Positions 14,868 through 33,445 of a stretch of 64,000 bases of DNA are shown here, one piece after another (positions within the stretch are counted from its first letter, which is position 1; each line of letters starts with the position of its first letter). A program made the translations under genes and the position numbers. A model generated the notes under the pieces. The model did not search any database, had not been told where the DNA came from, and saw only the letters and a list, made by a program, of their open reading frames with translations. Source of the stretch: Thermodesulfovibrionales bacterium (lineage in GTDB: Bacteria > Nitrospirota > Thermodesulfovibrionia > Thermodesulfovibrionales > SM23-35); assembly GCA_963715195.1 (NCBI GenBank), contig CAVQRT010000002.1, positions 96,001-160,000 on the forward strand. The letters run 5' to 3'.

Positions 14868-15395
14868 ATGAATAGCAAAATCATTATCGGGTATCTTTCC
14901 GTTCTGGGTCTCTCATTCTTCCTGTACGCAGTGAAGCCAGGTGCTTCTTATTTCAGTCTTTTACCGCTGCTCATGATCATATTCCCGTTCATTGTTGGAC
15001 ACAGGGTCAAACTGACTTTTTCGCTGCAGGATTTTTCCATGGGATTCGGTGCGGCGCTTATGGTTCTCCTGCCATATTATCTCATCTTCGGAGGAACCGG
15101 CAAAACAATCACATCGTATACCTTAATTTTTCAGATCCTGAGCGTGGCTTTCCCCGAGGAATTTTTCTTCAGGGGGTTCTTGCAGGATCTGATAGGGAAA
15201 AACCTGAGAGCGGTGTTTGTGGCGAGCATGCTCTTTTCCCTTGCCCATCTTCCGAAGGCACTATTTACCGGAGAGTGGATTTTGCTTCTCAGCTTTTTCC
15301 CTTCGCTGATTATGGGATGGCTCTATATGAAAACGGATAACATCCTTCCTTGTGTACTATTCCATTTTTTGGCGAATCTGGTGTATCAATATTAG
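14868..15395 (+). CDS. CPBP (Abi/CAAX type II) glutamic intramembrane protease, candidate myxosortase/MrtJ-like sorting enzyme
   Basis: EEFFFRG, FSLAH, HFLAN motifs; multiple TM segments. Confidence 0.85.
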   Translation: MNSKIIIGYLSVLGLSFFLYAVKPGASYFSLLPLLMIIFPFIVGHRVKLTFSLQDFSMGFGAALMVLLPYYLIFGGTGKTITSYTLIFQILSVAFPEEFFFRGFLQDLIGKNLRAVFVASMLFSLAHLPKALFTGEWILLLSFFPSLIMGWLYMKTDNILPCVLFHFLANLVYQY

Positions 15396-15406: not shown

Positions 15407-17808
15407 TCAAGAATCCAAGTTCTTGAATTTTTTATTTGATCGAATAATGCATTTAAAAGGTGCGGATGTTGTGAGAAAAATTGTTTTTCGAACAATGTCT
15501 GCACTTTTGGGATTAAATTCTTTTACATGACTCTTCGAACCCTTGGCCCCTCGAATCCTTTTTCTTGCCATTATCCAGACCACGAATGCAGGGAGGAAGA
15601 GTATTGTTAAATCCGCCGCTGCCGTTTGATTATTCGAAGTATTTCCCACTGAACACCCTCCGCCACCGCCTCCATCAGATTTTGCTCCGTTTTGTACCGT
15701 TACCGACACCTCAGTCGAATATGAAGAATAAGCTTGATCGATAAAGCCCCTTACCCTGTATGTGAAGGTTCCGGTTTGAAGACCGCTGTCGGTATATGTG
15801 GTAACACCTGAGGAAACCAATGCTATTTCCCTGAACTGATCTCCTGATCTTTGTCTTTCTATGGCAAAGCCCTCCTCAGCATTTGATGTATCCGCCCACG
15901 TTAGCAAAACCCTGCCGCCTGTCAGCGTCGTGCCGGTCAATTCAGACGGGGACAGCAAGGACGTGACTGCTTTATAAGCATTGAGCCTCCCGCCTGACAA
16001 TATTTTCCCCTGCAGTGACTGCCTGACATCAACAGAATGCAAGATCACACTCTTCAGGTGCTGAGCGCTAAAATTTCCATAATACGAAGCAACAAGGGCA
16101 GCAACACCTGAAACTACGGCCGTTGACATCGAAGTTCCATTAAACAGCGCGTAAGCATCACGATAATCAATTGAAAAGGCCGTCGCACTTCCAACGGGCA
16201 AAACAGCATCAACAAAAAACTGGTTTCCAGCGCCATCGCCGTGTCGTCAGGGAAATATCTACCAAGAGTCCATTAAAGATATCGGCACCTGTGAGGATTC
16301 TCCCGTTTGCATTATCGGAAACATACCGTGCATGGAGGTAGGTTTCGTAGAAATCGCTCCGACCGATGTCATACCCGATTTCCTGTCCAGTGATCAGGAG
16401 GGCACCACCCGAATCAAGATAGGATACGGAGATTTTCCTGATCGGCTGCAGTTAACGTATTCCTGAATTCATTACCGGTAAACCAAATAACAAGACTGTA
16501 CTGTTTGAGGATATCTGCTCCCGGGCCATCACCGTTCAAGGGGATTTGATAAGAATCTGACGAATAACCGAGGGCCCGGACAGACTCTGTATAGTACGTT
16601 TCATACGAACTGCCGCCATCGTCATCAACGATCAGGATACTCCCTCCATCGGGAATTCCGGCGAAGCTTGCTGCCCGCTGCAAAACTTCTTTGCGTGACA
16701 AAGCGCCATTGATGCCTTCAAACCCAAACGAAAGATAAATCACTTTATACAATCCGCTGTAGGTTACGCCGGTTACGAAAGACGGGATTGCACTGATTAT
16801 GTTTGTGCCCGGTGCTGCGATATCGACAGAAACAAGCCCGTAGTTCGAAAAATTCGCCAGATTATCGTTCTGATCTGTGGCAGCAACCGAGATAATATTG
16901 GAAAGATTAAAGCTTGCAGGATACAGAGGGGTTACATCACTGTTCCCTCCTATTGCGGATCTACCATCATTACCTGCAGCAGCAATGAAGAGGATGTCGG
17001 GGAAAGCCTTTATCGAGTTGTACAGGGCCTGTGAATAGTCAGACCCACTGAAACTCATGTTGATAATTTTTACATTATGATCGGCAGCAAATGCTATTGC
17101 CTCAATAACATCCGCAATCGTGCCCTCTCCGTTTTCGTCGAGTGCCCTTAAAGGCATTATCCGGGAATTCCATGCAGTCCCCGTGATTCCCCGTGCATTA
17201 TTGCTGACAGCACCGATAATGCCTGCTACATGAGTGCCATGCCCATTGAGGTCGTCAGGTTCATAATCATCATCAACGAAGTCATACCCCGTTAATAGAT
17301 TCCCTGCGAGATCAGGGTGGTCTTTATCAACACCGGAATCTATTACGCCAACTATGACAGCCGAAGTCCCTTTTGTTATATCCCACGCTTCGTCTGCATC
17401 AATGTCGGCATCAGACGTGCCAACGAAACCGCTCACAATCTGGCCGGTATTCAGCAAATACCATTGTTCGGTGAACCTGGCATCATCAGGAATTACGGCA
17501 GCCCACACCAAATAATTGGGCTCGGCATATTCTACGTCCGGACTTTCGCTGTAAAGCCTGACAGCTTCTTCGACGGAGAGATCGGCCGGTAGTTTGACCC
17601 TCTCAACCCCTTCGGTCTTAACTCGCTTCATTACATGTGCGCCGAGCATACGATGGGCTGAGCATTTTTGCATATCATGTACGCTCGGCTTGAATTTGAC
17701 AAGTATCTCACCTTCTTTATAGACAAGGCCGGTATTCCCTTTTCCGACCTCCCCCCCGCATGAAAAGATGCCCAATATAGCAATCATGAGAAAGATGTGT
17801 TTTACCAT
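15407..17808 (-). CDS. Subtilase A (S8) lipoprotein: prodomain, catalytic domain with insert, FN3, Gly-Cys C-terminal tag; frameshifts at ~16428 and ~16243
   Basis: Lipobox IFSC; VIDSG, HGTHVAG, AAAGN in the 5' piece; NGTSMS in the 3' piece; intervening frame reads continuously. Confidence 0.85.
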
Positions 17809-17813
17809 ATTGC

Positions 17814-18593
17814 TCAGAATACAATCGGCCCTTTCACCGGGATTACATAATATCCGGGTGATACCTGATATCTTTCAACCTGCGAAATAAAAAGAGGATT
17901 TTCGAGCAATAATTTTTCAGGCATTACTTCCACCCTGAGATCCATGAGATTGCCTCTGATAACTCCTTTTAGTCTTGCGAAAATATCCTTGCCCTCCAGA
18001 TAGATGGATGCGATATCAATAGTATTCCCGTCAACATCCACAGCCCCTTTTACTGTGTGAAAAAAATTCAGAGGTACCAGGACACTTCCATGAACCGTGG
18101 GCTCAAATGCAGCGTCACCCACAAAAAAATCCACGTGCCATCTTTGATCGGTCAGGATAATGTTTCCCGAAACAGTCCCCTCCCCGCGTATGCCGGTCAT
18201 TGTGAGAAATTGCACATCCCTTAAACGGGCCTGCCTGAAATCCATATTCATCGTACTACTTTTTTTTGAAAGGCTGGCATCTCCGGAAAAACTGCCTTCA
18301 CCGAGTCTGCCATGGACAGACAGATCAATCCGTAAAGCGATAAGATTCAACGGATTTATCTTGGCATGGACAGCGTGTAACGAAATCAATTCTGTCCCCA
18401 TGCTTGTCAGAGCAATTCTGTCAGCATACAGACGATAAAATAAGCCCTTTCTCAGACCTTCAACCGTCATCGCAACGTTCTGATTACGGACAGAATCTTC
18501 AATGATTGTTTCCATCGCCGAAACAGGGAATGCCGTCCAAATACCCCAGACAACGGTTACGACGGCAACAAGTGCAAAAAAAAATTTTTTCAA
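17814..18593 (-). CDS. gspN: Type II secretion protein N
   Basis: N-terminal TM ending AFP, beta-rich; follows gspM. Confidence 0.7.
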   Translation of the reverse strand: MKKFFFALVAVVTVVWGIWTAFPVSAMETIIEDSVRNQNVAMTVEGLRKGLFYRLYADRIALTSMGTELISLHAVHAKINPLNLIALRIDLSVHGRLGEGSFSGDASLSKKSSTMNMDFRQARLRDVQFLTMTGIRGEGTVSGNIILTDQRWHVDFFVGDAAFEPTVHGSVLVPLNFFHTVKGAVDVDGNTIDIASIYLEGKDIFARLKGVIRGNLMDLRVEVMPEKLLLENPLFISQVERYQVSPGYYVIPVKGPIVF

Positions 18594-18676
18594 TGAAGAT
18601 ACCTTACCTTATTTTTGTATAAAGCAGGTCAAGAACTTTGATTCATTCGTTTTAATGTTGAAAGGCACATTGCACT

Positions 18677-19183
18677 TTACTTCGTTTTTAAAAACGAAAG
18701 CATAAGGGTAATGTTCAGGAGTTCCGGATTCTCAAACGACTGCTTAACCGTCACCTTCCTTACGGTAAGAATCATTGGCGCATGCTCGATACGGTAGAAG
18801 ATGTTCACCATTTCATTCATGGTAACTTTTTCAACCGAGACATCCGCTTCTTCTTCAATCCCGTCCTTAGTTTCCTTCTTTCCGATGCTCTTTACTGCCT
18901 TAATGTTATCCCTGAGGCCGACGGATGAAAAAACCTCGTCAATAGCCTGCAGAACTCCCTGCACATTCGCCAGATGTTTCTTATTTTCGACTGTCTGTAT
19001 TTTCTGCTGCAGGGACAAAAACTCTTGCCTGAGTGATGACATCTCTTTGTGTTTTTCCCGCAGGTGATGCAATTCCTTCGTTTGGGAGGAAAGTATTTTT
19101 AGGCCAAGGGCTGCGATAATCACAAAGGGTATCAGGACAGATACGAGATAGATAACCCGCCTGTCCTTAAAAAGATTTTTCAC
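18677..19183 (-). CDS. gspM: Type II secretion protein M-like
   Basis: Single TM, coiled coil, ferredoxin-like C-terminus; follows gspL. Confidence 0.7.
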   Translation of the reverse strand: MKNLFKDRRVIYLVSVLIPFVIIAALGLKILSSQTKELHHLREKHKEMSSLRQEFLSLQQKIQTVENKKHLANVQGVLQAIDEVFSSVGLRDNIKAVKSIGKKETKDGIEEEADVSVEKVTMNEMVNIFYRIEHAPMILTVRKVTVKQSFENPELLNITLMLSFLKTK

Positions 19184-20244
19184 ATCTCCCTCTCTTTCGC
19201 AGTAATGGTAAAAAGCGTTCTCCCCTGCACAGAAACCTTTGAATCTGAAATCGATACATCCTGAAAATGTTTTTTTAGCTTCCCCTGCAGCTGCTGCACG
19301 GCGCTTAAGGAGCCTGCTTCTCCTCGAAAAGTAAGCTTTTCATTTTCAATGGTCACCTCATGAAATCTGCCATCTTCTCTTTCAATCTGAGCAAGTTCCG
19401 AAAGCACATTCAGGGGCTTGATACCGATAAAAACTCCTTCCCTACTCTTGAGTTCCTTGAAGTGAGATTTCAACTGGTGGAGTTCGTTCATAATGTTTTT
19501 CTCTTCGGGAAAGAGCTCAAGATAGGATTTCCGTATCTCGTTTCTTAATAGTATTATTTCCTGTTTTGAAGTCACTATCCTGAATAAGATATTCGCAGCC
19601 AGGACAAGGATAATCATGGCAACCAACACGGCTGTCATCTTCAGGGATTTCCTTGTTGTTTCGGCATCACGGGTATATGCAAATTCATTCCGCCGCAAAT
19701 TGATCGTCGGATTCCTGATCTCTTCAATGGCAAGGGCTATCCTTTCTTCGTTGGGTATGGATACAGGAGGTACAAGGTTTGACAACGCAAACCCCTTCAG
19801 GGCATTTTTCAGTTCAAGAGAAGTTATGCAGGCAGGGTCGATCCCGACTAAGTTCAGTTTCTCAAGGATTGCCCTGAGACGATGCTTTTCTATGTATACC
19901 GCGAGGACCTGATATGCGTTATCCGTTCTACCGACGATGACTGCATCGAAAATCACTGCTTCTGAACCACCCAGAACCATCCCGTCGAGCTCAAAAGGGA
20001 GAACCTCACGTATCCGTTCTTTATCAGAAAATGGCAGATCAAGAACCCTGAAATTAAGGCTGGTGACAGGCAGACCGACGTATGTCGTTTTCATGTTTTC
20101 AGATGCTGCATCAGCAGGCAAGTCATAGGCATGAGTTAAAGGGAATTCCTTCTGCTCCTTTATTGCAAACCTGTTTCCCTTCATTTCAAAGATGTATCTG
20201 CACAATTCCTTATCTTTGATATCAAAAAAACAGATTTCGCTCAT
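19180..20244 (-). CDS. gspL: Type II secretion protein L
   Basis: LDLPFSD..IREVLPFELD, INLRRNEFAY, TM. Confidence 0.82.
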   Translation of the reverse strand: MSEICFFDIKDKELCRYIFEMKGNRFAIKEQKEFPLTHAYDLPADAASENMKTTYVGLPVTSLNFRVLDLPFSDKERIREVLPFELDGMVLGGSEAVIFDAVIVGRTDNAYQVLAVYIEKHRLRAILEKLNLVGIDPACITSLELKNALKGFALSNLVPPVSIPNEERIALAIEEIRNPTINLRRNEFAYTRDAETTRKSLKMTAVLVAMIILVLAANILFRIVTSKQEIILLRNEIRKSYLELFPEEKNIMNELHQLKSHFKELKSREGVFIGIKPLNVLSELAQIEREDGRFHEVTIENEKLTFRGEAGSLSAVQQLQGKLKKHFQDVSISDSKVSVQGRTLFTITAKEREM

Positions 20245-21152
20245 TAATATTCCTTCCAGTATTCAATGCTGGAGTTCTCAAGATTCAGGACCGTTTCGAT
20301 AATCCGTTTCACACCTCCTGCATCGGCTGCTGATTGTATAGAAAATTCTTCACCTTTTACCGTAATCACACCGGCGGGTATATCCATACCCCCTCCGAAA
20401 CCAGCCACATTGTCTAGCTCCCCTATGGCCTGAAAGGGATTGTTCTTACGAAAATCGATCACCCTCTGCGCAAGTTCATCAGTAATTTTTTCTGAAAGAC
20501 ACCTGAGAACCGGTTTCTCAGCCCCGTTAATATTTATAGAAAGATTGTCCCTGGTACCATAGACAGTTATATGCGGCAACAGGGTATTATAATCGTCCCT
20601 GCTTATTCCCGGTATCGACAAGATTTCATCCCTGCTGGCCAGACGTCCATTTTTTGCTTCTCTCTCAGAATCAGCATCCCGTGCTTCATGGTCGGAATCA
20701 ATCCAATCCACAATCCGGTCTGCTATCCTCTCATTGAGAGAGAGAACCCTGAGAAGTCTTTTAAAACAGTTGTAAGGGCTTCCCGGTTCATCCTCACGGA
20801 TAATCTCATTTGGAGGCACGAGGGCATTGACATTAAACCTGGAACTTTCATCCTCGATTCTTATCATTATACTTCCTTTGAAGCCTTCGAAAGGGTTTTC
20901 TACCGGAAACTCCATGACCCCTGGATATGAATAATCTGCATCTTTGAGGGCATCGGTTATCATCTTTGCCGATACATGTATACCCGACCTCGCCATGAGT
21001 GAAAGTCTCTGTGAATCACGCCAGTTATAAAGATTGCCCGTACCGATATACACTCCATATGAGAATTCTACAACCAGAGACATAATAAGAATCACAGCCA
21101 GCAATGTCACAACCAATGCTATGCCGCCCTGATTTTTCAAAGGATATGTCAT
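20244..21152 (-). CDS. gspK: Minor pseudopilin K
   Basis: GIALVVTL, IEDESSRFNVN, IVDWID, ININGA. Confidence 0.92.
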   Translation of the reverse strand: MTYPLKNQGGIALVVTLLAVILIMSLVVEFSYGVYIGTGNLYNWRDSQRLSLMARSGIHVSAKMITDALKDADYSYPGVMEFPVENPFEGFKGSIMIRIEDESSRFNVNALVPPNEIIREDEPGSPYNCFKRLLRVLSLNERIADRIVDWIDSDHEARDADSEREAKNGRLASRDEILSIPGISRDDYNTLLPHITVYGTRDNLSININGAEKPVLRCLSEKITDELAQRVIDFRKNNPFQAIGELDNVAGFGGGMDIPAGVITVKGEEFSIQSAADAGGVKRIIETVLNLENSSIEYWKEY

Positions 21153-21898
21153 ATCGGTTTATTGATCCTCGGTTTTGCAGTATCTGAAAGCGTTATTGTT
21201 CTGTCTTTCAGTCTGAAAGCAAGGTTGATTCTTATTTCCTCGGGAGTATTCTTGTTGATATCTGTATCCCATGTTTTGACCCATTCGTCCTGGTATTTTG
21301 CCTCTATGCTGAACGCATCCAGATTTTCGATAAGCTCAAATCCTTCTCTTTTCTCTTGTGTCTGCTGTGGGAGTTCTATTTTCTTGAAGAGATTCAATCT
21401 GCCGCCCCTTTCTTCAATATAATAAGAAACTCTTGAGAGACCGGGTCTTAAGACAGAAAAAGTTGTAAAAGTCAGTTCGGAGGCGCTTTTTCCATAAGAA
21501 TCCCGGTCCTTTATCTGAAGAAGGGTATTTGCATCTGCTTCTTTAAAAAAGGATGACTCCAGTTCACATCTGAGAATATCAAGAGCCCTTCTGGCCTCCT
21601 GGAGCTTGACCAGAGATTCATCCATGCCATCAACAGCTCTGTGTGCCAGGAAAAACGTACTATAAATCGCTGCAAGGACGACCGACAGAATTGCAACAGA
21701 CACAAAGACCTCGATAAGAGTAAAACCGTGTTTATTGATCAAAAGATCACCAGAGCTGATATGTGTCTGGGTTGTCATTCCGGCTTGGCCGGAATCTTTC
21801 TCTCTACAAGAGGATCCCGGACAAGCGGGAATGAAAAAAGAATACCTATGATGCAAATAGTGGAAGTAAGAATTATTTTTACTTAAAAACAAATTCAT
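21149..21898 (-). CDS. gspJ: Minor pseudopilin J (start uncertain, REP doublet in leader)
   Basis: GFTLIEV prepilin motif; operon position. Confidence 0.82.
   Translation of the reverse strand: MNLFLSKNNSYFHYLHHRYSFFIPACPGSSCREKDSGQAGMTTQTHISSGDLLINKHGFTLIEVFVSVAILSVVLAAIYSTFFLAHRAVDGMDESLVKLQEARRALDILRCELESSFFKEADANTLLQIKDRDSYGKSASELTFTTFSVLRPGLSRVSYYIEERGGRLNLFKKIELPQQTQEKREGFELIENLDAFSIEAKYQDEWVKTWDTDINKNTPEEIRINLAFRLKDRTITLSDTAKPRINKPI
21774..21835. repeat. REP/REPIN-like doublet (GTCATTC family)
   Basis: GTCATTCCGGCTTGGCCGGAATC ... GATCCCGGACAAGCGGGAATGAA. Confidence 0.85.
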
Positions 21899-22262
21899 TC
21901 AACGTTACCTCATCATGGCCCGATCTCACAACAACAATGATCTCCGCAATTCCCGCATATGGGGAGTCTTTTACAAACGTCTCATACGAATACTTTTCAT
22001 ATGGTAAATCATAGGTACCTTCACTCTCCTCAGGACTTTTTTCTATCGCAGCCAGTTTATCTTTGGCGAGAAGCGTTGCGACTGTTATTGTTTCCTGTTT
22101 TTCGACCAGACTCAAATGATAGTTTAGCGTGTAGATGACAGTTACAAGGAGAGATCCGATAACAGCAAGAGCAATAAGGACCTCAAGAAGGGTAAAGCCG
22201 CACTTCCTTCGAAGGATGAGGGATGAATTATGAAGATTGAATGGAAAATTCTTAGTCCTCAA
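21879..22262 (-). CDS. gspI: Minor pseudopilin I
   Basis: GFTLLEVLIALAV; size and position. Confidence 0.82.
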   Translation of the reverse strand: MRTKNFPFNLHNSSLILRRKCGFTLLEVLIALAVIGSLLVTVIYTLNYHLSLVEKQETITVATLLAKDKLAAIEKSPEESEGTYDLPYEKYSYETFVKDSPYAGIAEIIVVVRSGHDEVTLNEFVFK

Positions 22263-22710
22263 TTCTTCCTTCGTCCTTGATCTTCACTTTCCCGCTCAGA
22301 TGGTTAAAGGTTATTGTCATATTTTTTTCCCCCGTACCCATATGTACGGAAATATCTTCCCTGAATCCAAGAGGCTCAACCAAGATTGTTACCGCGCCCC
22401 CGGAGACTGTTCCTGCGGAGTGAGTTGTTACGCCTGTTATGTCGTCGAATTTCTTCGTCTTTCCGCCCTCCGGAGTTTTCCATGAGATTAAATTTCCGTC
22501 AAGGTCGAATTTTAACCAATATGCCTCCTTTCGTGAGATTGCGCTGTCGTGTAAAAATCTCAGGATCGATGCGACTTCACGCGCTTCAGATTTGAGTCTG
22601 CGCTCACCAAATCCGGCGAACGACGGCAATACTATTGCTGTAATCAGTGAAATGATGAATAGAGCAACAATCAGTTCAAGGAAAGTAAACCCACGGGGAT
22701 TTATTTTCAT
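22252..22710 (-). CDS. gspH: Minor pseudopilin H
   Basis: MKINPRGFTFLEL; start 22710 just after gspG stop. Confidence 0.82.
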   Translation of the reverse strand: MKINPRGFTFLELIVALFIISLITAIVLPSFAGFGERRLKSEAREVASILRFLHDSAISRKEAYWLKFDLDGNLISWKTPEGGKTKKFDDITGVTTHSAGTVSGGAVTILVEPLGFREDISVHMGTGEKNMTITFNHLSGKVKIKDEGRIED

Positions 22711-22714
22711 TTTA

Positions 22715-23146
22715 TTATTGGATATCCCAGTTCCTGATATCGGCCTCTTTTCCTTCTCCACCCTCTCTTCCGTCAGCGCCGTAACTTATCAGATCAAAGT
22801 CACCATATATACCCGGCGATATATAGATGTACGGATTTCCCCATGGGTCAGGCGGTATTTTCCTCTGTTCAAGGTATCCGCCTTCCCTGTATCTCTCCGG
22901 TACCTGTCCCGTCGTAGGTTTTTCAATGAGGGCTGCGAGTCCCTGCTCTGTGCTCGGGTAGAAAGCATTGTCGAGCTTGAAGAGCTTGAGGGCAGTTTCG
23001 AAATTCTTTATCTGCACTTTTGCCTCTGCGATACGCGCATCGTCCGTTCTTCCTATTATCCTCGGGGCCACGATGGCGGCGAGAAGACTCAGGATAAAGA
23101 CGACTACAATGATTTCAAGCAACGTAAACCCTCTATTTTCTCCCAT
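22715..23146 (-). CDS. gspG: Major pseudopilin G
   Basis: GFTLLEI, YPSTEQGL, DPWGNPY, SYGADG. Confidence 0.96.
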   Translation of the reverse strand: MGENRGFTLLEIIVVVFILSLLAAIVAPRIIGRTDDARIAEAKVQIKNFETALKLFKLDNAFYPSTEQGLAALIEKPTTGQVPERYREGGYLEQRKIPPDPWGNPYIYISPGIYGDFDLISYGADGREGGEGKEADIRNWDIQ

Positions 23147-23270
23147 ATTTTATCCCTCCATCTCTATCTGTCCTGGTTACGATCATCAGGCACTTTCTCT
23201 ATCTCTTATTTAAAAGGTTCAAGGATTTTAGTGTAACAACCAATTCGCCCGGAGCCTCGGACCCTATTCA

Positions 23271-24446
23271 CTATTTTATCAACTGATTCAACTGGAATAT
23301 CGGCAACAGAACAGCAAGAACGATCAGTCCGACAATAACACCCATGGCGAGAATCATGGCAGGTTCCAGGAAAGCCAGTGCCTTCTGTACCCTCCGCGAA
23401 AATTCCTCCTCGTATGAGTCTGCAGCATTCTTCAGTACTCCGACAAGTTGCCCGCTCCTCTCCCCGGTCGAGATGAGCTGCAGAAGGACAGGCGGAAAGC
23501 CCTCCAGTGAGGCTGAGAGCCTCGCTCCCTCCGCGACTCTCTCAGCAGCTTCAACGACCCTTTTCTCGATCATCGCGTTGCCGACAGACTTCGCAGAAAG
23601 TTCAAGTGCCCTGAGGACAGGCAACCCTCCTTCAAGCAAAAAACTGAGGGTTCGTGTGAATCTCGCATAATACAGGCTTTGAATGATCCTCCCCGGCAAC
23701 CGGACAAGCATTTTATCAATAAGCATTCGGTTATTCTCCTTCAGTCTCCTCAGCCCGAATATGGCACATACGAGCAACCCTATCAAAAGCCACCAGTAAT
23801 GCTGAAAAATATCGCTTACCGCAATCAGCGCAATGGTAAGAAAAGGGAGGGCTGACTCTGTATCCTGAAAAATCTTTGTTATTTTCGGTACGACAAACGT
23901 AAAGAGGAACGAGAGCACAATGAAACCGACACAGATCATGAAAACCGGATAAACCATCGACGTCCGCACCTTTGCTTTAAGACCGCTCTGCGTTTCAAGA
24001 AAATCTGCCAGACGGACAAGGACTTTATCAAGGGCCCCGCTTGTCTCACCTGCAGCAACCATATTTACATAAAACTCGGGGAAGATGGTGTCATACTCTT
24101 CAAGCGCTTTTGAAAAACTCGCCCCTGCAACCACCTTTTCCTTGATGCTGATCAGAACATTCTTCCAAAAGCCTGCGTTTTCCTGAGCAATCGCATTCAG
24201 CGCTTCCATTAAGGTAACACCGGAAGAAAGAAGTGTGGATAATTGTCTCGTTACGGATGGAAGGAAATTTGCATCGGTTCTCCGGAATAACCCTGATTTC
24301 TCAAGATAAACTGTCTCCCTGACCTTTTTGGGATAGAGTCCTGACTCCTTAAGTCTGAGAACCGCATCTTTTTGACTACTTGCCTCGATAGTACCAGCGA
24401 CCTCTGAACCATCAGTCCTATACCCGCTATACTGAAATATCGGCAT
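23271..24446 (-). CDS. gspF: Type II secretion inner membrane platform protein F
   Basis: TRQLSTLL, AGETSG, MVYP, LEP. Confidence 0.93.
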   Translation of the reverse strand: MPIFQYSGYRTDGSEVAGTIEASSQKDAVLRLKESGLYPKKVRETVYLEKSGLFRRTDANFLPSVTRQLSTLLSSGVTLMEALNAIAQENAGFWKNVLISIKEKVVAGASFSKALEEYDTIFPEFYVNMVAAGETSGALDKVLVRLADFLETQSGLKAKVRTSMVYPVFMICVGFIVLSFLFTFVVPKITKIFQDTESALPFLTIALIAVSDIFQHYWWLLIGLLVCAIFGLRRLKENNRMLIDKMLVRLPGRIIQSLYYARFTRTLSFLLEGGLPVLRALELSAKSVGNAMIEKRVVEAAERVAEGARLSASLEGFPPVLLQLISTGERSGQLVGVLKNAADSYEEEFSRRVQKALAFLEPAMILAMGVIVGLIVLAVLLPIFQLNQLIK

Positions 24447-25947
24447 AGTCCTTCTGGGTCACCCGCAAGACTTCTTCGAGCGTAGTAATCCCCTGAAGAA
24501 CTTTTTCGAGACCATCCATCCTCAGGGTTTTCATGCCTCGTGAGATCGCATAATTCTTGATGCTCTGTGAATCGATCTTATCGGTAATCATGGGACGTAT
24601 TTCATTATCAATCACAAGGAGTTCGAAAATCCCCGTCCTTCCGATGTACCCCTTATTTTTACAGTGCTCACAGCCTATCCCCCGATATAAAAGTTCAGGT
24701 GGTTTCCTGAAATAGGATATTTCAATATCAGATGGCTCATATGCTGTTTTGCAACCAGGACATATCGTCCTGGCAAGTCTTTGCGCGAGAACAACCGTGA
24801 GGGAAGATACGACAAGAAATGGCTCAATCCCCATGTCGATAAGCCTCACGAGAGCGCTCGGTGCATCATTTGTATGAAGGGTGCTTAAAACTAGATGGCC
24901 TGTGAGTGATGCCTGCATCGCAATTTCTGCAGTCTCAAGATCTCTTATTTCGCCAACCATGATGACATCCGGGTCCTGTCTCAATATTGATCGCAACCCG
25001 GAGGCAAATGTCAGACCTATCCTGGGATTCACGTGTATCTGGCCGATACCCTTCAGCTGGTACTCCACGGGATCCTCTACGGTTATGATATTTTTTTCTT
25101 CGGTGTGAATCCTGTTCAGGGCAGCGTAAAGTGTTGTGGTCTTACCGCTTCCTGTTGGACCCGTCACCAGGATGATGCCGTCAGGTCTTTTGAGGTATTC
25201 GTCAAGTTTGATCTCGTCATCTCTGCCAAACCCTATTTCCCATAATCCGAGCAGCCCCTGTTTCCGGTCGAGCAGCCTCATAACTGCCCGCTCACCATGC
25301 GATGTCGGCACAACAGAAACTCGTATGTCGATATCCCGGCCTCCAAGAAGCAATCGTATCCTGCCGTCCTGGGGCAGCCTCTTCTCCGCAATATCAAGAT
25401 GAGCCATAATCTTTATCCTGCTGATCAAGGCATCCTGAATAATCTTGGGAGGGGACAAGACCCTCAGGAGAACTCCGTCTATTCGTAACCGGACATCGAG
25501 TTCTTTTTCATACGGCTCAATATGGATATCACTTGCCCTCTCCTTGACTGCCTGCAGAAGAAGTGCGTTCAGAAGGCGTATGATAGGGGCTTCCTCGGTT
25601 AATTCAAGCAGGTCCTTCGGCGCCTCAAACGCTGTTGCAACCGATGAGAGATCTTCTCCGGATATGGTATCCATGACTTCTTCAGCAGAACCCATTTGAC
25701 CATAGAACCTGTTGATAGCGTCGAGAATAACTCCGGCGGGTGCTTTGAAGGCCCTTGGCTTTAAATCGAGCATCTTTGCGGCTTCCGAGAGCGCGAGCAT
25801 TCCCCTCTCATCTGCAATAGCGCCAACAAGTTCCGCATCGTGCCTCCGGATCGGAAATATCTGGTTATTCTTTACAAAGCTGAGGGGAATATTCTTGAGA
25901 AGGGCGGTTTCAACGTCTTCATCTCTTATGACATCAATCGTGTCCAT
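24427..25947 (-). CDS. gspE: Type II secretion ATPase E
   Basis: ASDIHIEP, GPTGSGKTTT, LRQDPD, Cys zinc motif. Confidence 0.95.
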   Translation of the reverse strand: MDTIDVIRDEDVETALLKNIPLSFVKNNQIFPIRRHDAELVGAIADERGMLALSEAAKMLDLKPRAFKAPAGVILDAINRFYGQMGSAEEVMDTISGEDLSSVATAFEAPKDLLELTEEAPIIRLLNALLLQAVKERASDIHIEPYEKELDVRLRIDGVLLRVLSPPKIIQDALISRIKIMAHLDIAEKRLPQDGRIRLLLGGRDIDIRVSVVPTSHGERAVMRLLDRKQGLLGLWEIGFGRDDEIKLDEYLKRPDGIILVTGPTGSGKTTTLYAALNRIHTEEKNIITVEDPVEYQLKGIGQIHVNPRIGLTFASGLRSILRQDPDVIMVGEIRDLETAEIAMQASLTGHLVLSTLHTNDAPSALVRLIDMGIEPFLVVSSLTVVLAQRLARTICPGCKTAYEPSDIEISYFRKPPELLYRGIGCEHCKNKGYIGRTGIFELLVIDNEIRPMITDKIDSQSIKNYAISRGMKTLRMDGLEKVLQGITTLEEVLRVTQKDYADISV

Positions 25948-28221
25948 TCAGTCTGCATTTTGCATCTTCATAATGTAATTCGGTTCCGCATACTCAACTT
26001 CCTGATAAATTTTAAAAATCTCTACCGCTTTTCCGACATCCTGCCCTTCCTTCAGCTTGATATGATGGGGCCCCCCCGGTCGTAAAAAGGATATGACGGA
26101 TGCGCCTTCAGCAGTGAGTATTTCTGTTATACGTTCCTCACTCGTTCCATCTTTAAATTTTACAAGCAGCTCCCCTTCAGCGAATGTCTGTGCTGCTTTC
26201 GCATACTCAGTTCTTTTTGAAGCCGTCAATTTTGATAAGTACTCCGCTTCCTTCACGATGTGTGGGGTGAGGAATACGAGCAAGTTCGTTTTCTTTTTCT
26301 GGACCGATTTATTCTTGAAGAGCCATCCAAGGAGCGGGATGTCTCCAAGAAGAGGGACCTTGGTGATATTTTCCTCTTCTCTCTCCTCCATGAGCCCTCC
26401 GATTACGACCGTCTGATTATCCTTCACAACAACAGAGGTCTTTGTTGAGCGCTTTGTGGTTGTGGGACCAACCGTCAATACGACTATTGTTGACTCCTGT
26501 TTCAAAGCAGATATCTCCTGATAGATATCAAGTTTTACGTAATCACCTTCTGCAATCTGCGGAGTCAGTCTCAGGGTTATGCCGACATCTTTTCTCTCGA
26601 TGCTGGTAAACACGGATTGGGGTCTTGCAGGGTCAGATTCCTTCTGCGAGATAAACGGGACATTCTCACCGACGATTATCTCCGCTTCCTTGTTGTCAGA
26701 TGTGAGAATCTGAGGTGTTGAAAGAACATTAATTGCTCCCTTAAACTCATTCAGGCTGAAGAGAGCAGCAAATCCGGGGACAGTCAGTGTTGATGTTATT
26801 ATTTCTCCATCGGCACCGATCGTTGAGACCGGGACATCAAGAAAATTGCCCATTCCCCCGGCGGTTAATCCCGTCAGGCCAAAGAGGATATTCTGCATAG
26901 TGGTAGCATCTACGGTTCCAAATCCTCCGACCGCCACCGGTTCCCCGTCTTTTTCCGCAATAATCCGCCAGCTCGAGCCAAGCTCCTGCAATCTGTCAAT
27001 GGACGCCTCAACAATCATAGCCTCTACGTAAACCTGTTTTCTCTTCCGGTCAAGCTGCTTTATAACAGCAATAAGATTCTGATAATCCGCAGGCGAGGCG
27101 ACAATAACCAGTGAATTAGTTGCCTTATCGGGTGATATAATGATTTTTCCGACCGGTTCGAACGAACTCCTGACAGGTTGTCCCGTTTGTTGAGCAGCGC
27201 TGGTCCTCACCTGTGTGGATATTCCTGTCAGCATGCCTTCCAATACTTTTGAGAGCTCAGTTGCATCAGCGTATTCAAGGAAGTAGACGTTAATCTTGCT
27301 TGTTGCCTCAGGGAGCGGGATATCTAGAAGTGCAATCATCCTCCTCAGGGATTCTTCTTCCTGTTTATCGGCAATCAGGATTACAGCATTCAGCCTGGTA
27401 TCGGCAAAAACACTGGCCTTTGCTTCCTCGCCGGAAACAGCTGTTGCAGGTTCTCCCGGTCTCAGAGGCCGGTAAGCCGGGGGTTGTGCCTGTGCATTTA
27501 ATGTTAAAGCCTCACTGATGATTTTTACGACATCTTCGGCATTTGCATACTTGAGAAGAATAAGCTCAGGTTCCTCTGTCCCCGATTTATCAATCAATTC
27601 GATGATCGTCAGAAGCTTCTCAATATTGGTGGCAGAATCAACAATCATCAGTATATTCCCCGGCCCGAAAGACGCAATATGACCGTCCCGTGAGACAAGG
27701 GGCTGCAAAAAATTCAACGCCCTCGAAGCCGAGATCGATTGAAGCGGTACAAGCCTCGTAATATAAGCATCACTGACCGGTTGCACACCTTCTTTCAGGA
27801 TTTCGGTCCCCGACTGCTTTGCCTGTGAGATAGGAACTATCTTATAGACCTTGCCAGAAGGGATAATCGTGAACCCCTTCAACTCCAGAACCGAGGTGAA
27901 CAGACTAAAGGCATCGTCCACAGACAGTTTTGAAGGGGCAATAATGGTAATAGAGCCTTTTACTCTTTCATCAAATACAAAATTCTTCCGGGTGATGTCA
28001 CTGATAAATTTGACGACTGCAGAAATATCAACGTCGACAAAATTGAACGTAACCTTTTTCTCTTTGCCCTGACTTTCCTGTGCACCGGCAAAAGCAGAAG
28101 TGTTTGAAAACGATACGGGATGCAAGATACAGGATAAAACGACAAAACAGAAAACAATGCAAAATACAGGATGTAGGAATACTTTATTTTTCATCTTTAA
28201 TAACGTGTATTGTAGCACCAA
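25948..28221 (-). CDS. gspD: Type II secretion secretin D with C-terminal subtilase-prodomain-like domain
   Basis: FNFVDVDI N0, N domains, QVYVEAMIVE, KVPLLGDIP, FLTPHIV, then EGELLVKFK...VEYAEPNY. Confidence 0.95.
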   Translation of the reverse strand: MVLQYTLLKMKNKVFLHPVFCIVFCFVVLSCILHPVSFSNTSAFAGAQESQGKEKKVTFNFVDVDISAVVKFISDITRKNFVFDERVKGSITIIAPSKLSVDDAFSLFTSVLELKGFTIIPSGKVYKIVPISQAKQSGTEILKEGVQPVSDAYITRLVPLQSISASRALNFLQPLVSRDGHIASFGPGNILMIVDSATNIEKLLTIIELIDKSGTEEPELILLKYANAEDVVKIISEALTLNAQAQPPAYRPLRPGEPATAVSGEEAKASVFADTRLNAVILIADKQEEESLRRMIALLDIPLPEATSKINVYFLEYADATELSKVLEGMLTGISTQVRTSAAQQTGQPVRSSFEPVGKIIISPDKATNSLVIVASPADYQNLIAVIKQLDRKRKQVYVEAMIVEASIDRLQELGSSWRIIAEKDGEPVAVGGFGTVDATTMQNILFGLTGLTAGGMGNFLDVPVSTIGADGEIITSTLTVPGFAALFSLNEFKGAINVLSTPQILTSDNKEAEIIVGENVPFISQKESDPARPQSVFTSIERKDVGITLRLTPQIAEGDYVKLDIYQEISALKQESTIVVLTVGPTTTKRSTKTSVVVKDNQTVVIGGLMEEREEENITKVPLLGDIPLLGWLFKNKSVQKKKTNLLVFLTPHIVKEAEYLSKLTASKRTEYAKAAQTFAEGELLVKFKDGTSEERITEILTAEGASVISFLRPGGPHHIKLKEGQDVGKAVEIFKIYQEVEYAEPNYIMKMQNAD

Positions 28222-28298: not shown

Positions 28299-29174
28299 CT
28301 ACCTAATTTGGTATGTCATGGTTATTCGAGACCCGGATCTCATGAGATCGACCTGAACCCTGTCCATGCCTTTCAGGGCGGTAAAGGCCTGAAGCGCCCT
28401 CTCCGGATTTGAAATATCGTACTCGTTGATTCTCAGCAGAACGTCTCCATCCTGCAACCCAAGGCTCTGATAGACACCGCCAGGTTTGACTTCACTCAAC
28501 ACAAAGCCCTCTTCCTTCCCATTGACTATATTCGGCTTGAGTCTTGCATCCGTCATCATCTGGCCGGGGTTTGCAATCGCCTGCTGGAGACGCGCCTGAT
28601 CGACCATATAGGCTGAACGCCCGATTTTCCGTGCAAATGAGGATTGAGCAGGGCCTACAGTAGATGACTGTTTCCCCACTTCTCTGACTTCTACATCTTC
28701 AAGGAGCATCTCTTCTGTCTTTCCTCCTTTCCTGATAATAACTCTGTCCCGCTCAACTCTGTAGAGTTTGCCGGTATCAAATACAGGGTCGCCAATCTTA
28801 AAGATCTCCTGAACACCTGCTGCATCCCTGAAAATGCCGTAACTGAGTTCTCTGGGACCTACCACCGTACCGATAAGTACGATATCTCCCTGATGCGTCT
28901 TAAGACCTGTTGAGGCAGATAAAGACTTGATTTCGCCGCCGGGAAACCCAAAAGGATTATTAGATAGTATGACGGCATATTCTGAAAGTTGTTTGTCTGG
29001 TCTCGGCATTGATTCATCCTGCCCTCTGTATACGCCATTCTGGACATTTTTTTTATGGTCGAAATAACGTGAAATGATATCCCGTACCACAAAAACCGTA
29101 GAAAAAATCAGAATAATACCTAGCAGGATATTCAGATAAAAGAGATTTCTTTGTGAGAGGAGGTTTGATTTCAA
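28299..29174 (-). CDS. gspC: Type II secretion protein C with PDZ domain
   Basis: TM, LIGTVVG HR domain, LGLQDGDVLLRIN PDZ. Confidence 0.9.
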   Translation of the reverse strand: MKSNLLSQRNLFYLNILLGIILIFSTVFVVRDIISRYFDHKKNVQNGVYRGQDESMPRPDKQLSEYAVILSNNPFGFPGGEIKSLSASTGLKTHQGDIVLIGTVVGPRELSYGIFRDAAGVQEIFKIGDPVFDTGKLYRVERDRVIIRKGGKTEEMLLEDVEVREVGKQSSTVGPAQSSFARKIGRSAYMVDQARLQQAIANPGQMMTDARLKPNIVNGKEEGFVLSEVKPGGVYQSLGLQDGDVLLRINEYDISNPERALQAFTALKGMDRVQVDLMRSGSRITMTYQIR

Positions 29175-29496: not shown

Positions 29497-31321
29497 CTAT
29501 CTCCTCCGTCTCATCACTGCTGCGAATATGAACGGTATGAGCATGACTGTCAAGTCTGCGAGTGCTGTTACTGTATTCTGTCCGGTACCGATTGAACATC
29601 CACCCCCGCCGCCGTGCCTCTTCTTAGGAACTGTAACGGATACTGGATTTGAAGGAAAAGACTCGGCAAAATCGTTGAATGCCTTTATTCTGTAAGAATA
29701 TGAAGTACCAACTGATACAGAGGAATCCTCATAAGATGATGAGCCCGGAGGCAATTGGGATATGCCCGTAAAAACACCTCCGCCCGCGCTCCTCTCAACT
29801 ACATATCCACCTTCACCAGTTGCATTATCTTCCCATGAAAGAGAAACCCTTGTTGACGAACTGCCAGTTTTTGCTGTTAAATTAGTTGGCGCCAGGAGCG
29901 AGGACAGAGCCCGGTATGCATTGATTCTCCCACCTGTATAAATCCATCCTTCCAATGTTGGCTGAACATCGACATACCGCAGGATCGTGTTACGGACTTG
30001 CTGATAGTTGAATAAAGTATTATGGACGCCATCATAATAACTGCAGAGTAATCCCGCAAGGCCTGAAACATGTGGTGCTGCCATAGAAGTGCCTGCCATG
30101 TATTCCAGAACGCCATATCCCGTTTGATTAAGCGCATAAGGCACCGTACTAAATGTATAGACTCCCGGAGCAGCCACATGAACAGTGGTGATACCATAAT
30201 TGCTGAACGGCACTCTTGTGTCATCCTGATCGGTGGCAGCGACAGATATAATGTTAAAAGGTTTGTAGCTTGCAGGATAAAAGGGCATAAGATCATTGTT
30301 ATCCCCTGCGCCGTCCTCACCACCGTTGCCTGCTGCAGCGACAAACAGGATCCCTTCAGCATTCAATGACCAAATAGCATCCTCAACCGCCTTGGAATAT
30401 TCACCGCCACCCAGACTTGCATTGATTACACGGATGTTTGCCCCTTTCTGCTTCAAGGAAACCAGATAATTAATTGCATCAATAAGCTCTGAATTTTCCC
30501 CTACTCCCTCCTCATTGAGAATCTTAATGGCCATAAGTTTCGCATGCCACATAACCCCGGCAATTCCGTTGCCGTTGTTCCCCGCAGCAGCAATAATCCC
30601 AGCAACATGTGTGCCGTGTCCATCATCATCCATTGGATTGTTATTGTCGTTAACAAAATTCCACCCGTAACAGTCATCAGTAAAACCATTACCATCTTCA
30701 TCGTACCCATCTGTGCAACTGGACTCTCCTGGATTCTGCCAAATATTATTAACTAAGTCGTCATGAGTAAATGCTATACCAGTATCGAGCACGGCAATAA
30801 GGATGTTGGAATTACCTGTGGCGATGTCCCAGGCTTCCGGGGCATCGATATCAGCATCAGCAGTTCCGCCCGCATATGTTCCATCATTATGGAGTGACCA
30901 TTGGTTTCTGAAATAAGGGTCATTTGGAAAAGTTGCTGCACGGATAATATAGTTAGGCTCTGCATATTCCACATTCGGATCCGTCATATAATTCTTTACC
31001 GCCTCTAGCACGGATACACTCTTTGGCAATTGAACAAGTTCAAGGTTAGGCACGATGTCGTACTTCCTGACAACAGAGGAACCGACTGCTTTATGAACCT
31101 GCTGAGATGACGCATTCACGACATCAGACTTAAATTTAACAAGGAGTTCCCCCTCTTTATAATTGTCCTTTCGCTGCTTGAGCGAGAATAGATTGGGCAC
31201 TGATATTTACACTCCCAACTTCGTTTGAAGATCCTGACGAGATGCTCGCCGTCTTGTCACTGCCGCAAGCAGCAAGAATCAAAACAACTAAAAGATAGGA
31301 AAAATAGAGCAATTTCCTCAT
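29497..31321 (-). CDS. Subtilase B (S8) lipoprotein: prodomain, catalytic domain, FN3, Gly-Cys C-terminal tag; frameshift at ~31158
   Basis: AGGAG RBS, MRKLL...LAAC lipobox at 31321; VLDTG, HGTHVAG, GTSMAAPHV; ends GGGGGCS..TM..RRRR. Confidence 0.9.
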
Positions 31322-31418: not shown

Positions 31419-32788
31419 TTACTGTACTGTTATCGTTGCTGACGCTGTTCCACCTACTGAATCTGAAACATCAAGAGTTGCTGTACCCACTGTGGCGGTT
31501 GCTGGAACTGAAACCGTTATAGTAGCTCCATTCCATATCCCCAGTTCCCCACCATCACGTATGCAGTTATTTGCAGTCCCGCCACCAGCACCGTTGTCAT
31601 TAAAAGCCCGATTTATGTTACTTGATGACGTTGTATATTGGGGTGTACCACCTGAAATGGTGAAGGTAAACGTTGAACATATTCCCGTTATAGTCGAAAC
31701 AGTAGGTGGGTTAATAGACAATGCTACTGGCTCTGGTTCCGGCTCTGGTTCGGGTTCAGGAGCTATTATCGTCACAGCGATACTATCCGATTTTCCAGCA
31801 GCAGAGGCTGTAATGTTTGCCGTTGCATCCAATGCTCCCGCATCAAGGGTAGGAGCATTATAAGTTGCCTCGGCTATGCCGTCTATCGTTTGGCTAAATG
31901 GATCAATACCGCCGAGATTTGTCGTAAAATTCACCGATGTCCCGTCAGGTGCCGGAGTACCTGCTGTTGTCGTCACATATGCTGTAACTGTTGAAATTTC
32001 ACCAGAGTCAATCGTCAAAGGATTTGCAAAGACTTCGACCTTTTGTATGGATACCGGATTCAAGGTCAGTGAGACGATATTGAAGGCTCCGTTGTCAGCT
32101 AATGCTGTTATATTAATAACAGTTGGAAGATCCCTGAGCGTCGATGGAATAACCCTAACGAGTATAGATGCCTGTCCGTTTGTGTCGGTCGTAGCAATGC
32201 TTCCGAGAGGAAATGTTGCCTCCTCGCTGTCAGACCCGAACAGGATATCCGTACCAACAACACGCCGTCCGAACCCGTCAAAAACCGTAGCCGTAATAGT
32301 GACTTCATTATCATTGGCAGTCTCGAAAAGCTCATAATTATCAGCAGCTAAGATCCAATGTCGGAATTGTGTTGCGATGCACTAAATGATGAGAAAAATA
32401 CCGTTTTCCTGTCTCTAACCTGACCTACTCCTCTATTGACTTCAGCCTGAACTGATGAAAACCCACTGGTGGTTGATTTGAGGGTAACCGATGCGATGCC
32501 GGTGCTATTCGTCTTTGCGCTTAAAGCACTTAATACACCAATTGGTGATAGATTAGTGAAGCTGACCGATATATTGTTTACAGGTGCTCCATTGCCATCG
32601 AGCACCTTGGCATGCAAGATAATAGCGGAATTCGTCTGTGCAATAAAGTGGGAAGGAAGCAATTGAACAATAGACGGCTCACCCGGATTTTCACCCCTGG
32701 GAGAATCTGAAGAACCGGATCCTCCTCCACAATTGAATGAAAAGAGGGATAATGCCAGTAATACTGACAGTATGATGATTTTTTTCAT
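31419..32788 (-). CDS. Lipoprotein with tandem Ig-like (Big_1/invasin-like) domains, frameshift(s) at ~32350-32375
   Basis: GGAGG RBS, SFNCGGGSGS lipobox; V.DGNGAPV..V.F, TDTNGQA, PDGTSVNFTT; (PE)n linker. Confidence 0.72.
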
Positions 32789-32804
32789 CTTATCCTCCAA
32801 AATA

Positions 32805-33445
32805 TTATTGACAATAATCGAACCAGCCAATCTGAAAATCTGTTTGTGCCTTGAAGGTAAACTTTTCTCCGTACTCGTTCTTTCCCTCAAAAGTATAGAC
32901 CGCCGTGTAGTTGTTTAAATATGCCATCCCGGAGTTATATTGGCCGGATGTGACATCGGATCAGATATTGGTCTTTTCTGATCAGATCAACGAGGATAAC
33001 GGTATCGTCCACAGTGGTTATCCCTGAACCGGCAGGAGCAGGAATAACAATAGTCTTATATCGAGTGTCGGTCTGAATCGGTGGTGCTCCTAAGGAATCT
33101 GCTGAACGCCTGAATTCAACGGTATATTTTTCTATATACAGGTTTCCCGCCTGAAAAGTCGTGTTTGGATTGATAAGCCGGGCGGTCAACGATAGAGTAG
33201 CATTGTGATCGGTAAAATCTTCAATTTCAGGAGGAGGTCCCGGATCACAAATATCCTGAACTGTGTCTACAGAATAGGTATTTTCATTTAAGGTATAAAG
33301 GCGTAACTATTGCATCAACTTCGACACCGGTATCTTCGGTCCCCTTACTGCCCGGAGAACCTGAACCGCCGCCGCAACCCCACAAAAATACAGTAGACAG
33401 TAGACAGTAAACAGCAAACAGGAAAATGTTATTTTTCTTCATCAT
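32805..33445 (-). CDS. Hypothetical lipoprotein, frameshifts at ~33287 and ~32960
   Basis: GGAGG RBS, LWGCGGGSGS lipobox; removing two bases gives one ORF ending WFDYCQ. Confidence 0.65.

Follow-up and report, generated by a model that had tools for sequence, protein, structure and literature searches.

The secretin GspD of a type II secretion system (T2SS) in a Thermodesulfovibrionales bacterium ends in a tail homologous to the prodomains of subtilases (S8 proteases), two of which, S8-A and S8-B, are encoded on either side of the T2SS operon. The gene lies in a stretch of 64,000 nucleotides, called the window below (assembly GCA_963715195.1, contig CAVQRT010000002.1, positions 96,001 to 160,000). 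The fusion is real and ancient, and protease binding by the tail is likely, judging from structural models. We favour, with some reserve, the reading that the tail is a periplasmic, secretin-tethered, propeptide-like binder of the operon's matured S8 lipoprotein/CTERM proteases, placed outside the lumen and not needed for their folding.

The C-terminal tail of GspD

GspD scores 555 bits with TIGR02517, above the equivalog cut-off of 351. Its Pfam matches are PF21305, three copies of PF03958, the secretin domain PF00263 (residues 494-657) and the Fervidolysin_NPro-like family PF22148, which covers residues 672-748 with 50.3 bits (cut-off 21). When the last 80 residues are scanned alone, as the sequence-only reading had proposed, PF22148 is found with 52.6 bits and E 6e-14. 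The gene is a single open frame (28221..25948, minus strand) with F680, the first residue of the tail, at 26184; its TGA stop (25950-25948) directly adjoins the gspE ATG at 25947. Thus the fusion of a secretin with a subtilase prodomain in one uninterrupted frame, claimed from the sequence alone, is borne out by the domain match and the frame. The chain has no S8 domain, and the prodomain sits C-terminal on a secretin, not N-terminal to its own catalytic domain. The tail is propeptide-like; it is not a propeptide.

Both flanking proteases have prodomains that PF22148 matches too, with 64 and 56 bits. Aligned with these over 72-74 residues, the tail shows 34.7% and 35.1% identity, and the two prodomains are 46% identical to each other. 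Judged by sequence, the tail is an ancient homologue of its neighbours' prodomains, not a copy; a recent copy is ruled out by the identity of about 35% together with a separate tree branch. Hence the tail does match the adjacent proteases in the sense of homology, through the common PF22148 domain, and does not match them in the sense of copying.

Contigs from four sequencing runs, each of a different study, were compared with the locus; the best-matching run may be the source sample. No joint was observed near 26190 in any of the four, and one X1 contig (19976-26901) and one X3 contig (25823-26784) span the junction without gaps. These independent contigs rule out a chimeric assembly join, the artefact against which the fusion was to be checked.

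PF22148 is on record for all 120 best GspD homologues, and the few names given there are Thermodesulfovibrionales, Nitrospirae or Nitrospirota. A sample of the class Thermodesulfovibrionia (201 genomes) yielded 132 matches to a junction profile, and the tail is present in 119 of 128 GspD orthologues. These comprise 117 matches covering the tail (two of them interrupted by a stop and two partial), one genome with the tail split over two frames (G165) and one with the tail behind an insertion (G142). Nine class GspDs are tail-less, six read directly and three judged by coverage; four weak matches were left unclassified. The tail is thus class-wide and by no means peculiar to this copy. In a sample of the phylum (251 genomes), no tail-covering GspD was observed outside the class among the matches listed, 50 lower-scoring rows aside.

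A species-wide genome scan found a tailed GspD in a Syntrophales record, the tail being present in three of the 80 loci kept, among the matches listed. Within Syntrophales the tail occurs in 11 of 201 genomes. The tailed secretins of this order nest within the Thermodesulfovibrionia copies (Shimodaira-Hasegawa-like approximate likelihood ratio test, SH-aLRT, 98), far from the order's own secretins, and so the tree points to one horizontal transfer. The transferred operon was seen at loci L128 and L207-L217; in L128, GspE is 69% and GspG 76% identical to those of the window. Two tailed fragments fall in clusters named 'Akkermansiaceae' and 'Proteobacteria'; they sit on contigs of 2-4 kb, and the names were not taken as taxonomy.

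In a tree of 75 columns, 39 tails are split from 23 of 24 S8 prodomains by a branch with 98/93 support, and one long-branched S8 row falls among the tails. A single origin of the tails is compatible with the tree (approximately unbiased test, p-AU 0.42), not demonstrated. Every pair tested shows purifying selection on the tail, with pN (non-synonymous) 0.04-0.29 against pS (synonymous) 0.28-0.90. Some homologues carry two tandem prodomains (P0241, P0245). GspD may also continue through a long linker of low complexity that leads to a SPOR or SPOR-like domain at the C-terminus (P0241, P0244, P0247, P0249, family f18, and Syntrophales L208-L211, L213 and L217). A prodomain-less GspD, P0266, ends in an AMIN domain, another periplasmic appendage at the same slot.

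Predicted fold, protease interface and conservation

Modelled alone, the tail forms a four-stranded sheet with two helices at a predicted local distance difference test score (pLDDT) of 77-86. The best Foldseek matches of the tail model are 1spb_P (E 3e-3) and 1scj_B (E 5e-3), with none at E 1e-3 or better. The best VIA-align matches are 9fid_D (Z 9.1, root-mean-square deviation 2.5, 70 residues aligned) and 3bgo_P (Z 8.5), followed at about 7.5 by RRM and ACT domains, which are unrelated. A PDB sequence search with the tail profile gave weak matches only, the best at E 0.1. The suspicion that the tail might not fold like a prodomain is not supported, the best structural matches being S8 prodomains.

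Residues E746-P747-N748 align with E-E-D of the BPN' prosegment in 1SPB. According to the available text of PMC6993865, Glu69 and Asp71 cap two helices of the protease, and the same E/N pair occurs in the stand-alone inhibitor SUB1-ProM. All 120 close homologues keep the capping E and N/D. Among these, 53 stop six residues after EPN, which we take to be the P1 register of subtilisin BPN' and thermitase; the complex model described below agrees. The C-terminus coincides with P1 in 21 of 83 diverse tails; in 27 it lies within three residues of P1, in 21 within 4-30 residues and in 13 more than 30 residues beyond, and one is short; six further tails without the motif stand outside this set. When the tail is modelled alone, its last strand has little order (last blocks at pLDDT 57 and 34), yet hydrophobic P4 and P2 residues are kept.

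A complex of S8-B (residues 90-436) with GspD (residues 655-757) was modelled with a score of 0.89, against 0.02 for the best control; contacts agree in at least 93%, and the pLDDT of the partner is at least 79. The mark applied was reached by 116 of 157 solved pairs and by two of 215 mismatched pairs, and these counts hold roughly with the alignments used here. The modelled interface comprises GspD residues 684, 686, 688, 744 and 746-757, including those beyond Q754, and K752 pairs with S262-L263-G264 of the protease. L686, Y744, E746 and N748 belong to the open face of the sheet. By analogy with the corresponding subtilisin pairing, Q754 is presumably P1. Since prodomain-subtilisin complexes have already been solved, the pass shows likeness to such complexes, not binding by this copy. 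The docking or silencing role suggested from the sequence alone fits the retained interface and the predicted S8-B complex, with the reservation that the model may pass by likeness.

Close homologues of the S8 proteases were found in 87 of 118 genomes with the tail, in six of the 10 then counted as tail-less and in seven of 69 without a GspD match (G142, counted as tail-less in this test, was afterwards moved to the tailed group). S8 presence tracks the T2SS. The expected link between tail and subtilase stands in part: S8 genes are tied to this T2SS, even inside the operon in some families, and the tail occurs in 16 class genomes that have no PF00082 match.

Conservation of the putative binding face was scored in 88 tails, at seven positions of the face and sixteen of the core, with allowed residues set after viewing the alignment. 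The 88 are all tails from genomes without a close S8 homologue plus a hand-picked spread of others. Tails from genomes with S8 (56) score 0.93 for the face and 0.96 for the core; those with a distant or partial S8 only (14), 0.81 and 0.93; those with no S8 (18), 0.83 and 0.95. In a rank test the face differs (p 0.003) and the core does not (p 0.77), kin being not independent. Erosion of the face is clearest in G151 and G191, which have no S8 and have lost the last strand (assemblies of 9 and 20 contigs), and in G127, G202 and G044. In G127 an 894-residue gene after gspF has no S8 features, and there is no PF00082 match in that genome. In G002, which has no S8 match, the tail is less like ten outgroups than are the tails of two congeners, which is not so for the secretin core.

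The strongest case is a Syntrophales clade of ten tails with a face score of 0.43 and core scores of 0.88-0.94, where nine of the ten genomes have no S8 match; this erosion was counted as one event. G404, sister to the clade, does have an S8 (PF22148 type), and its tail retains EPNY and a short end. Thus, where S8 is not found, protease-facing residues erode and the core is retained, and this one clade shows it best.

The proteases, their sorting tag and the T2SS operon

The features discussed are collected in Table 1. The complete gspC-N operon includes the GspE ATPase; gspN was assigned by a TIGR04411 match above the cut-off, and the other genes of gspF-M by sequence features and conserved order.

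Table 1. Positions of the secretin gene, its tail and the associated genes in the window
Feature	Positions	Strand	Remarks
gspD secretin, 757 aa	25948..28221	-	N0, three N domains, secretin domain, S-domain helix, prodomain-like tail
Prodomain-like tail, aa 680-757	25948..26184	-	capping pair E746/N748; predicted P4-P1 M751-K752-M753-Q754; then three residues
Helix aa 659-677, joins last barrel strand to tail	26191..26247	-	helix 73-91 of the 171-aa model
gspE ATPase, start adjoins gspD stop	24427..25947	-	PF00437, 478 bits
gspC with PDZ domain	28299..29174	-	
gspF, G, H, I, J, K, L, M, N	17814..24446	-	remainder of the T2SS operon
S8-B subtilase	29497..31321	-	lipobox signal, prodomain ~31161-30934, D/H/S catalytic domain, FN3, Gly-Cys CTERM tag; frameshift ~31165-31172
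S8-A subtilase	15407..17808	-	lipobox signal, prodomain ~17721-17497, catalytic domain with insertion, FN3, Gly-Cys CTERM tag; two frameshifts
CPBP/Rce1-like intramembrane protease, myxosortase-like	14868..15395	+	PF02517, 71 bits

Both S8-A and S8-B are lipoproteins with a C-terminal Cys-CTERM sorting tag, a point beyond the sequence-only reading. Full-length S8-A orthologues in relatives have 763-797 residues. Among 120 homologues of S8-B, a lipobox-like motif was found in 101, a CTERM motif in 87 and all three catalytic motifs in 119; the best 120 all have their own PF22148 prodomain. The three frameshifts in the two genes (~16243-16245 and 16422-16426 in S8-A, 31165-31172 in S8-B) are assembly errors, because contigs of three of the four runs show one base left out at each. 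The frameshifts are absent from independent contigs, which rules out pseudogenised proteases. Probably another assembly frameshift separates two Ig-like open reading frames of 214 and 180 residues at 31419-32890, which correspond to one gene of 438-627 residues in relatives.

In this genome the Gly-Cys tag occurs in S8-A and S8-B only. It has a conserved ADL motif, a proline in the membrane segment and a basic end (29497-29620, 15540-15680). The myxosortase-like CPBP gene adjoins S8-A here and in most mapped relatives of the family, and its product is likely the sorting enzyme for both tags. Its matches to the MrtS, Mrt_core and MrtJ models are all below cut-off (NF040589, 73 against 130; NF033192, 45 against 75). 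The JDVT-CTERM model NF033191 gives 16 bits for S8-A (cut-off 27) and no match for S8-B. The CPBP protease and the tag may form an unnamed sorting system dedicated to the two S8 proteases. Since Cys-containing CTERM tags are described, in the available text of bioRxiv 10.1101/2023.06.07.544157, as T2SS-dependent surface-sorting signals, S8-A and S8-B are probably T2SS cargo.

In three relatives (G026, G040, G108) an S8 gene lies inside the operon, between gspF and gspG. The S8 proteins of G026 and G040 exceed the CFI-box-CTERM cut-off. In G108 (L118:9031-11823, plus strand; C34) an S8 with a CFI-box-like tail shares one open frame with GspG, with no stop between them; this may be a genuine fusion, open to splitting by prepilin peptidase, or a slip of the assembly. 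In G025 (C4:89202-89872) a 144-codon frame with a lone PF22148 directly precedes a 2336-codon S8 frame with its own prodomain; it is a possible stand-alone or tandem propeptide. In G189, the usual place of S8-A holds a 551-codon lipoprotein-like frame with an HExxH motif on the opposite strand (L126:9175-10827, minus strand). Elsewhere in the genome under study (G000) there are two near-identical partial S8 genes with PF22148 (C1:2-841 and C13:4733-5587), of which one lies at the end of a contig and the other seems frameshifted; they are possibly strain duplicates, the bin contamination being 6.6%.

Searches for two pilotin families, PulS/OutS (PF09691) and AspS (PF16549), found neither in this genome, which is 97.8% complete; pilotins of other types may be present. 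A GspB/T2SSB domain lies far from the operon (C7:196769-196942; 72 bits, cut-off 28), and a GspAB-type assembly route may exist. A pilMNOPQ operon lies directly upstream of this T2SS cluster across the family.

Proposed function, alternatives and related systems

The available text of PMC6532946 places the S-domain helix of solved secretins on the periplasmic part of the barrel, with the pilotin-binding helix following it. By this comparison the helix at residues 659-677 would be the equivalent of S-domain alpha-11. As the tail follows the S-domain helix, it should lie in the periplasm, outside the lumen, and the SPOR extensions of some homologues agree. The suggestion that the tail acts inside the channel during passage agrees poorly with this geometry. 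Another suggested role, that of a chaperone, is unneeded because each protease already comes with a prodomain of its own.

Tail modules would then sit on the outer periplasmic wall of each secretin ring, which has 15 subunits in solved T2SS secretins. The S8 proteases would be exported as lipoproteins, fold on their own prodomain and cut it off; the N-terminal lipid would leave with the discarded prodomain, and the CTERM tag would keep the protease bound to the membrane. The tail would catch the matured catalytic domain in a product-like complex and may hold it inactive in the periplasm, close to the export machinery, pending its transfer to the surface. A need for such silencing is suggested by Vibrio cholerae, whose T2SS mutants gain mutations inactivating the secreted protease VesC, as reported in the available text of PMC7771236: secretion loss selects for an inactivated secreted protease. 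Silencing and cargo capture are indistinguishable on present evidence.

A bolder version, which we consider rather unlikely, makes the tail a dedicated secretin-borne receptor for one cargo class. A matured, lipid-anchored subtilase would swap its own prodomain for the tail and then either stay as a mycosin-like subunit or pass to the surface via the outer wall of the barrel, not the N-domain vestibule. If true, this would be a secretin-cargo contact through an interface of known type, which point mutations could switch off, and a direct handle on how the T2SS recognises and moves membrane-anchored cargo.

A number of observations weigh against the proposed binder. Firstly, among genomes with GspD, S8 is present equally in tailed and tail-less ones (p 0.46), and 31 of the 118 tailed genomes, including the 16 without any PF00082 match, have no close S8 homologue. 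Secondly, the face does not always follow the protease. A perfect face persists in seven of the 18 tails whose genomes lack S8, many other such assemblies being fragmented; among the seven is G189, whose operon is whole and has neither of the flanking S8 genes; and in G002, with no S8 match and S8-B absent from its usual place, the face is mostly kept (0.86). Conversely, the face is eroded (0.57) in G153, G181 and G185, where S8 is present, G515 has S8 proteases and belongs to the eroded Syntrophales clade, and genus g23 keeps S8-B and has lost the tail. A test of face erosion against S8 loss on independent pairs had three supported pairs and was not significant, being underpowered. Thirdly, only 21 of the 83 diverse tails end exactly at P1, and the P2 (M/I/L) and P1 (Q/K/R) residues of the tail are unlike the proteases' own A and S/A/L. 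Finally, a module outside the lumen cannot obviously pass cargo into the channel.

The best surviving alternative, which we still hold to be unlikely, is that a once-captured prodomain now merely extends the S-domain, as a stabilising belt or as a handle for an assembly factor replacing the pilotin-binding helix, with protease binding vestigial. Purifying selection in all pairs tested fits such a structural part, as does the core being kept both in genomes without S8 and throughout the eroded Syntrophales clade. The tail also occupies the position of the pilotin-binding helix of other secretins (PMC6532946, available text), and neither PulS/OutS nor AspS pilotins were found here. However, where S8 is present the capping pair and the open face of the sheet match the core in conservation, and where it is missing they erode, and nine GspDs of the class manage without a tail.

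Less probable still is that the membrane-anchored S8 is a standing T2SS subunit docked on the secretin, as a pilot or an envelope-spanning tether, in the manner of the mycosins of type VII secretion (PMC5082899, PMC8131196, available text). The intra-operon S8 genes of three relatives are consistent with this, as are the anchoring motifs found at both ends of most S8 homologues, the failure to find a known pilotin and the SPOR tether borne at the same C-terminal slot in some homologues. On the other hand, complete T2SS operons without S8 exist (G189, G151), catalytic motifs are kept in all S8-B homologues except one, the Cys-CTERM tags are described as surface-sorting signals in the bioRxiv text cited above, and the S8 proteases reach 140 bits with the mycosin model TIGR03921, whose cut-off is 279.

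It is very unlikely that the tail docks the protease for a cut after P1, trimming GspD or freeing the linker-SPOR extension. The 13 diverse tails running on for more than 30 residues, several of them into SPOR, and the modelled contacts past Q754 would suit such a substrate, whereas the 21 tails that end at P1 and the 27 within three residues leave little or nothing to release, and the SPOR extension is kept in the Syntrophales clade without S8. A neutral relic of chance fusion can be set aside as most improbable, and an assembly chimera as already refuted: recombination with S8 genes adjoining gspC/gspD is easily imagined, but the junction is spanned by independent contigs, PF22148 recurs in all 120 best homologues and the tail in nearly all class orthologues, the tails branch apart from the S8 prodomains, and selection is purifying.

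The proposed binder has relatives in several known systems. Like the N-terminal prodomains of subtilases (PF22148; I9 fold; 1SPB, 1SCJ, 1R6V), the tail has the same predicted fold, first and last strands, capping E and N/D, and length to P1; unlike them it is C-terminal on an outer-membrane channel, is followed by no protease domain, forms its own branch and has a bulky P2 and a polar or basic P1. With the stand-alone propeptide-like inhibitors in the available text of PMC6993865 (Plasmodium SUB1-ProM, Toxoplasma MIC5, POIA1, yeast proteinase B inhibitor, Arabidopsis SPI-1) it shares a detached prodomain fold, a place beside subtilase genes, the capping E/N pair, a variable C-terminal tail and a non-canonical P2. 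Those inhibitors are soluble and eukaryotic, with measured inhibition, whereas the GspD tail is bacterial, fused to a multimeric secretin and a predicted binder. T2SS secretins with pilotins (PulS/OutS, AspS/EpsS; PMC6532946, available text) likewise have one helix after the last barrel strand and a C-terminal partner-binding element; here a folded alpha/beta domain of 75 residues replaces the short pilotin-binding helix.

CTERM-sorted T2SS surface proteins (GlyGly-CTERM with rhombosortase, VesB; MYXO-, JDVT- and Synerg-CTERM with myxosortase) likewise have a Gly-rich Cys motif, a membrane segment, a basic end, an adjacent CPBP gene and a T2SS operon. The present tag stays below the JDVT-CTERM cut-off and the CPBP protein below all Mrt cut-offs, and other families use CFI-box-CTERM. 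The pair would work like a myxosortase system and, by these scores, is not a member of those models. Mycosins, as far as the available text goes, are likewise membrane-anchored subtilases in a secretion-system cluster; the S8 proteases differ in their T2SS context, their score below the TIGR03921 cut-off and their absence from some operons.

Each component has been described before: secretins, prodomains, CTERM sorting and stand-alone inhibitors of the propeptide-like kind. In the open-access literature, supplements aside, we met no case in which they are joined on a secretin and no description of a GspD-prodomain fusion; nor does the available text of the CTERM literature describe a secretin-borne protease binder. 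The fusion architecture is visible in precomputed domain tables.

The tail touches two open questions, how the T2SS recognises folded cargo and how the envelope is spared from secreted proteases, and a propeptide-like binder built into the secretin would answer them in a new way. Its contact with cargo would, moreover, be one of the few secretin-cargo interfaces predictable residue by residue and testable with two small soluble proteins. Lineages without the protease and the transferred Syntrophales copy would serve as natural negative controls.

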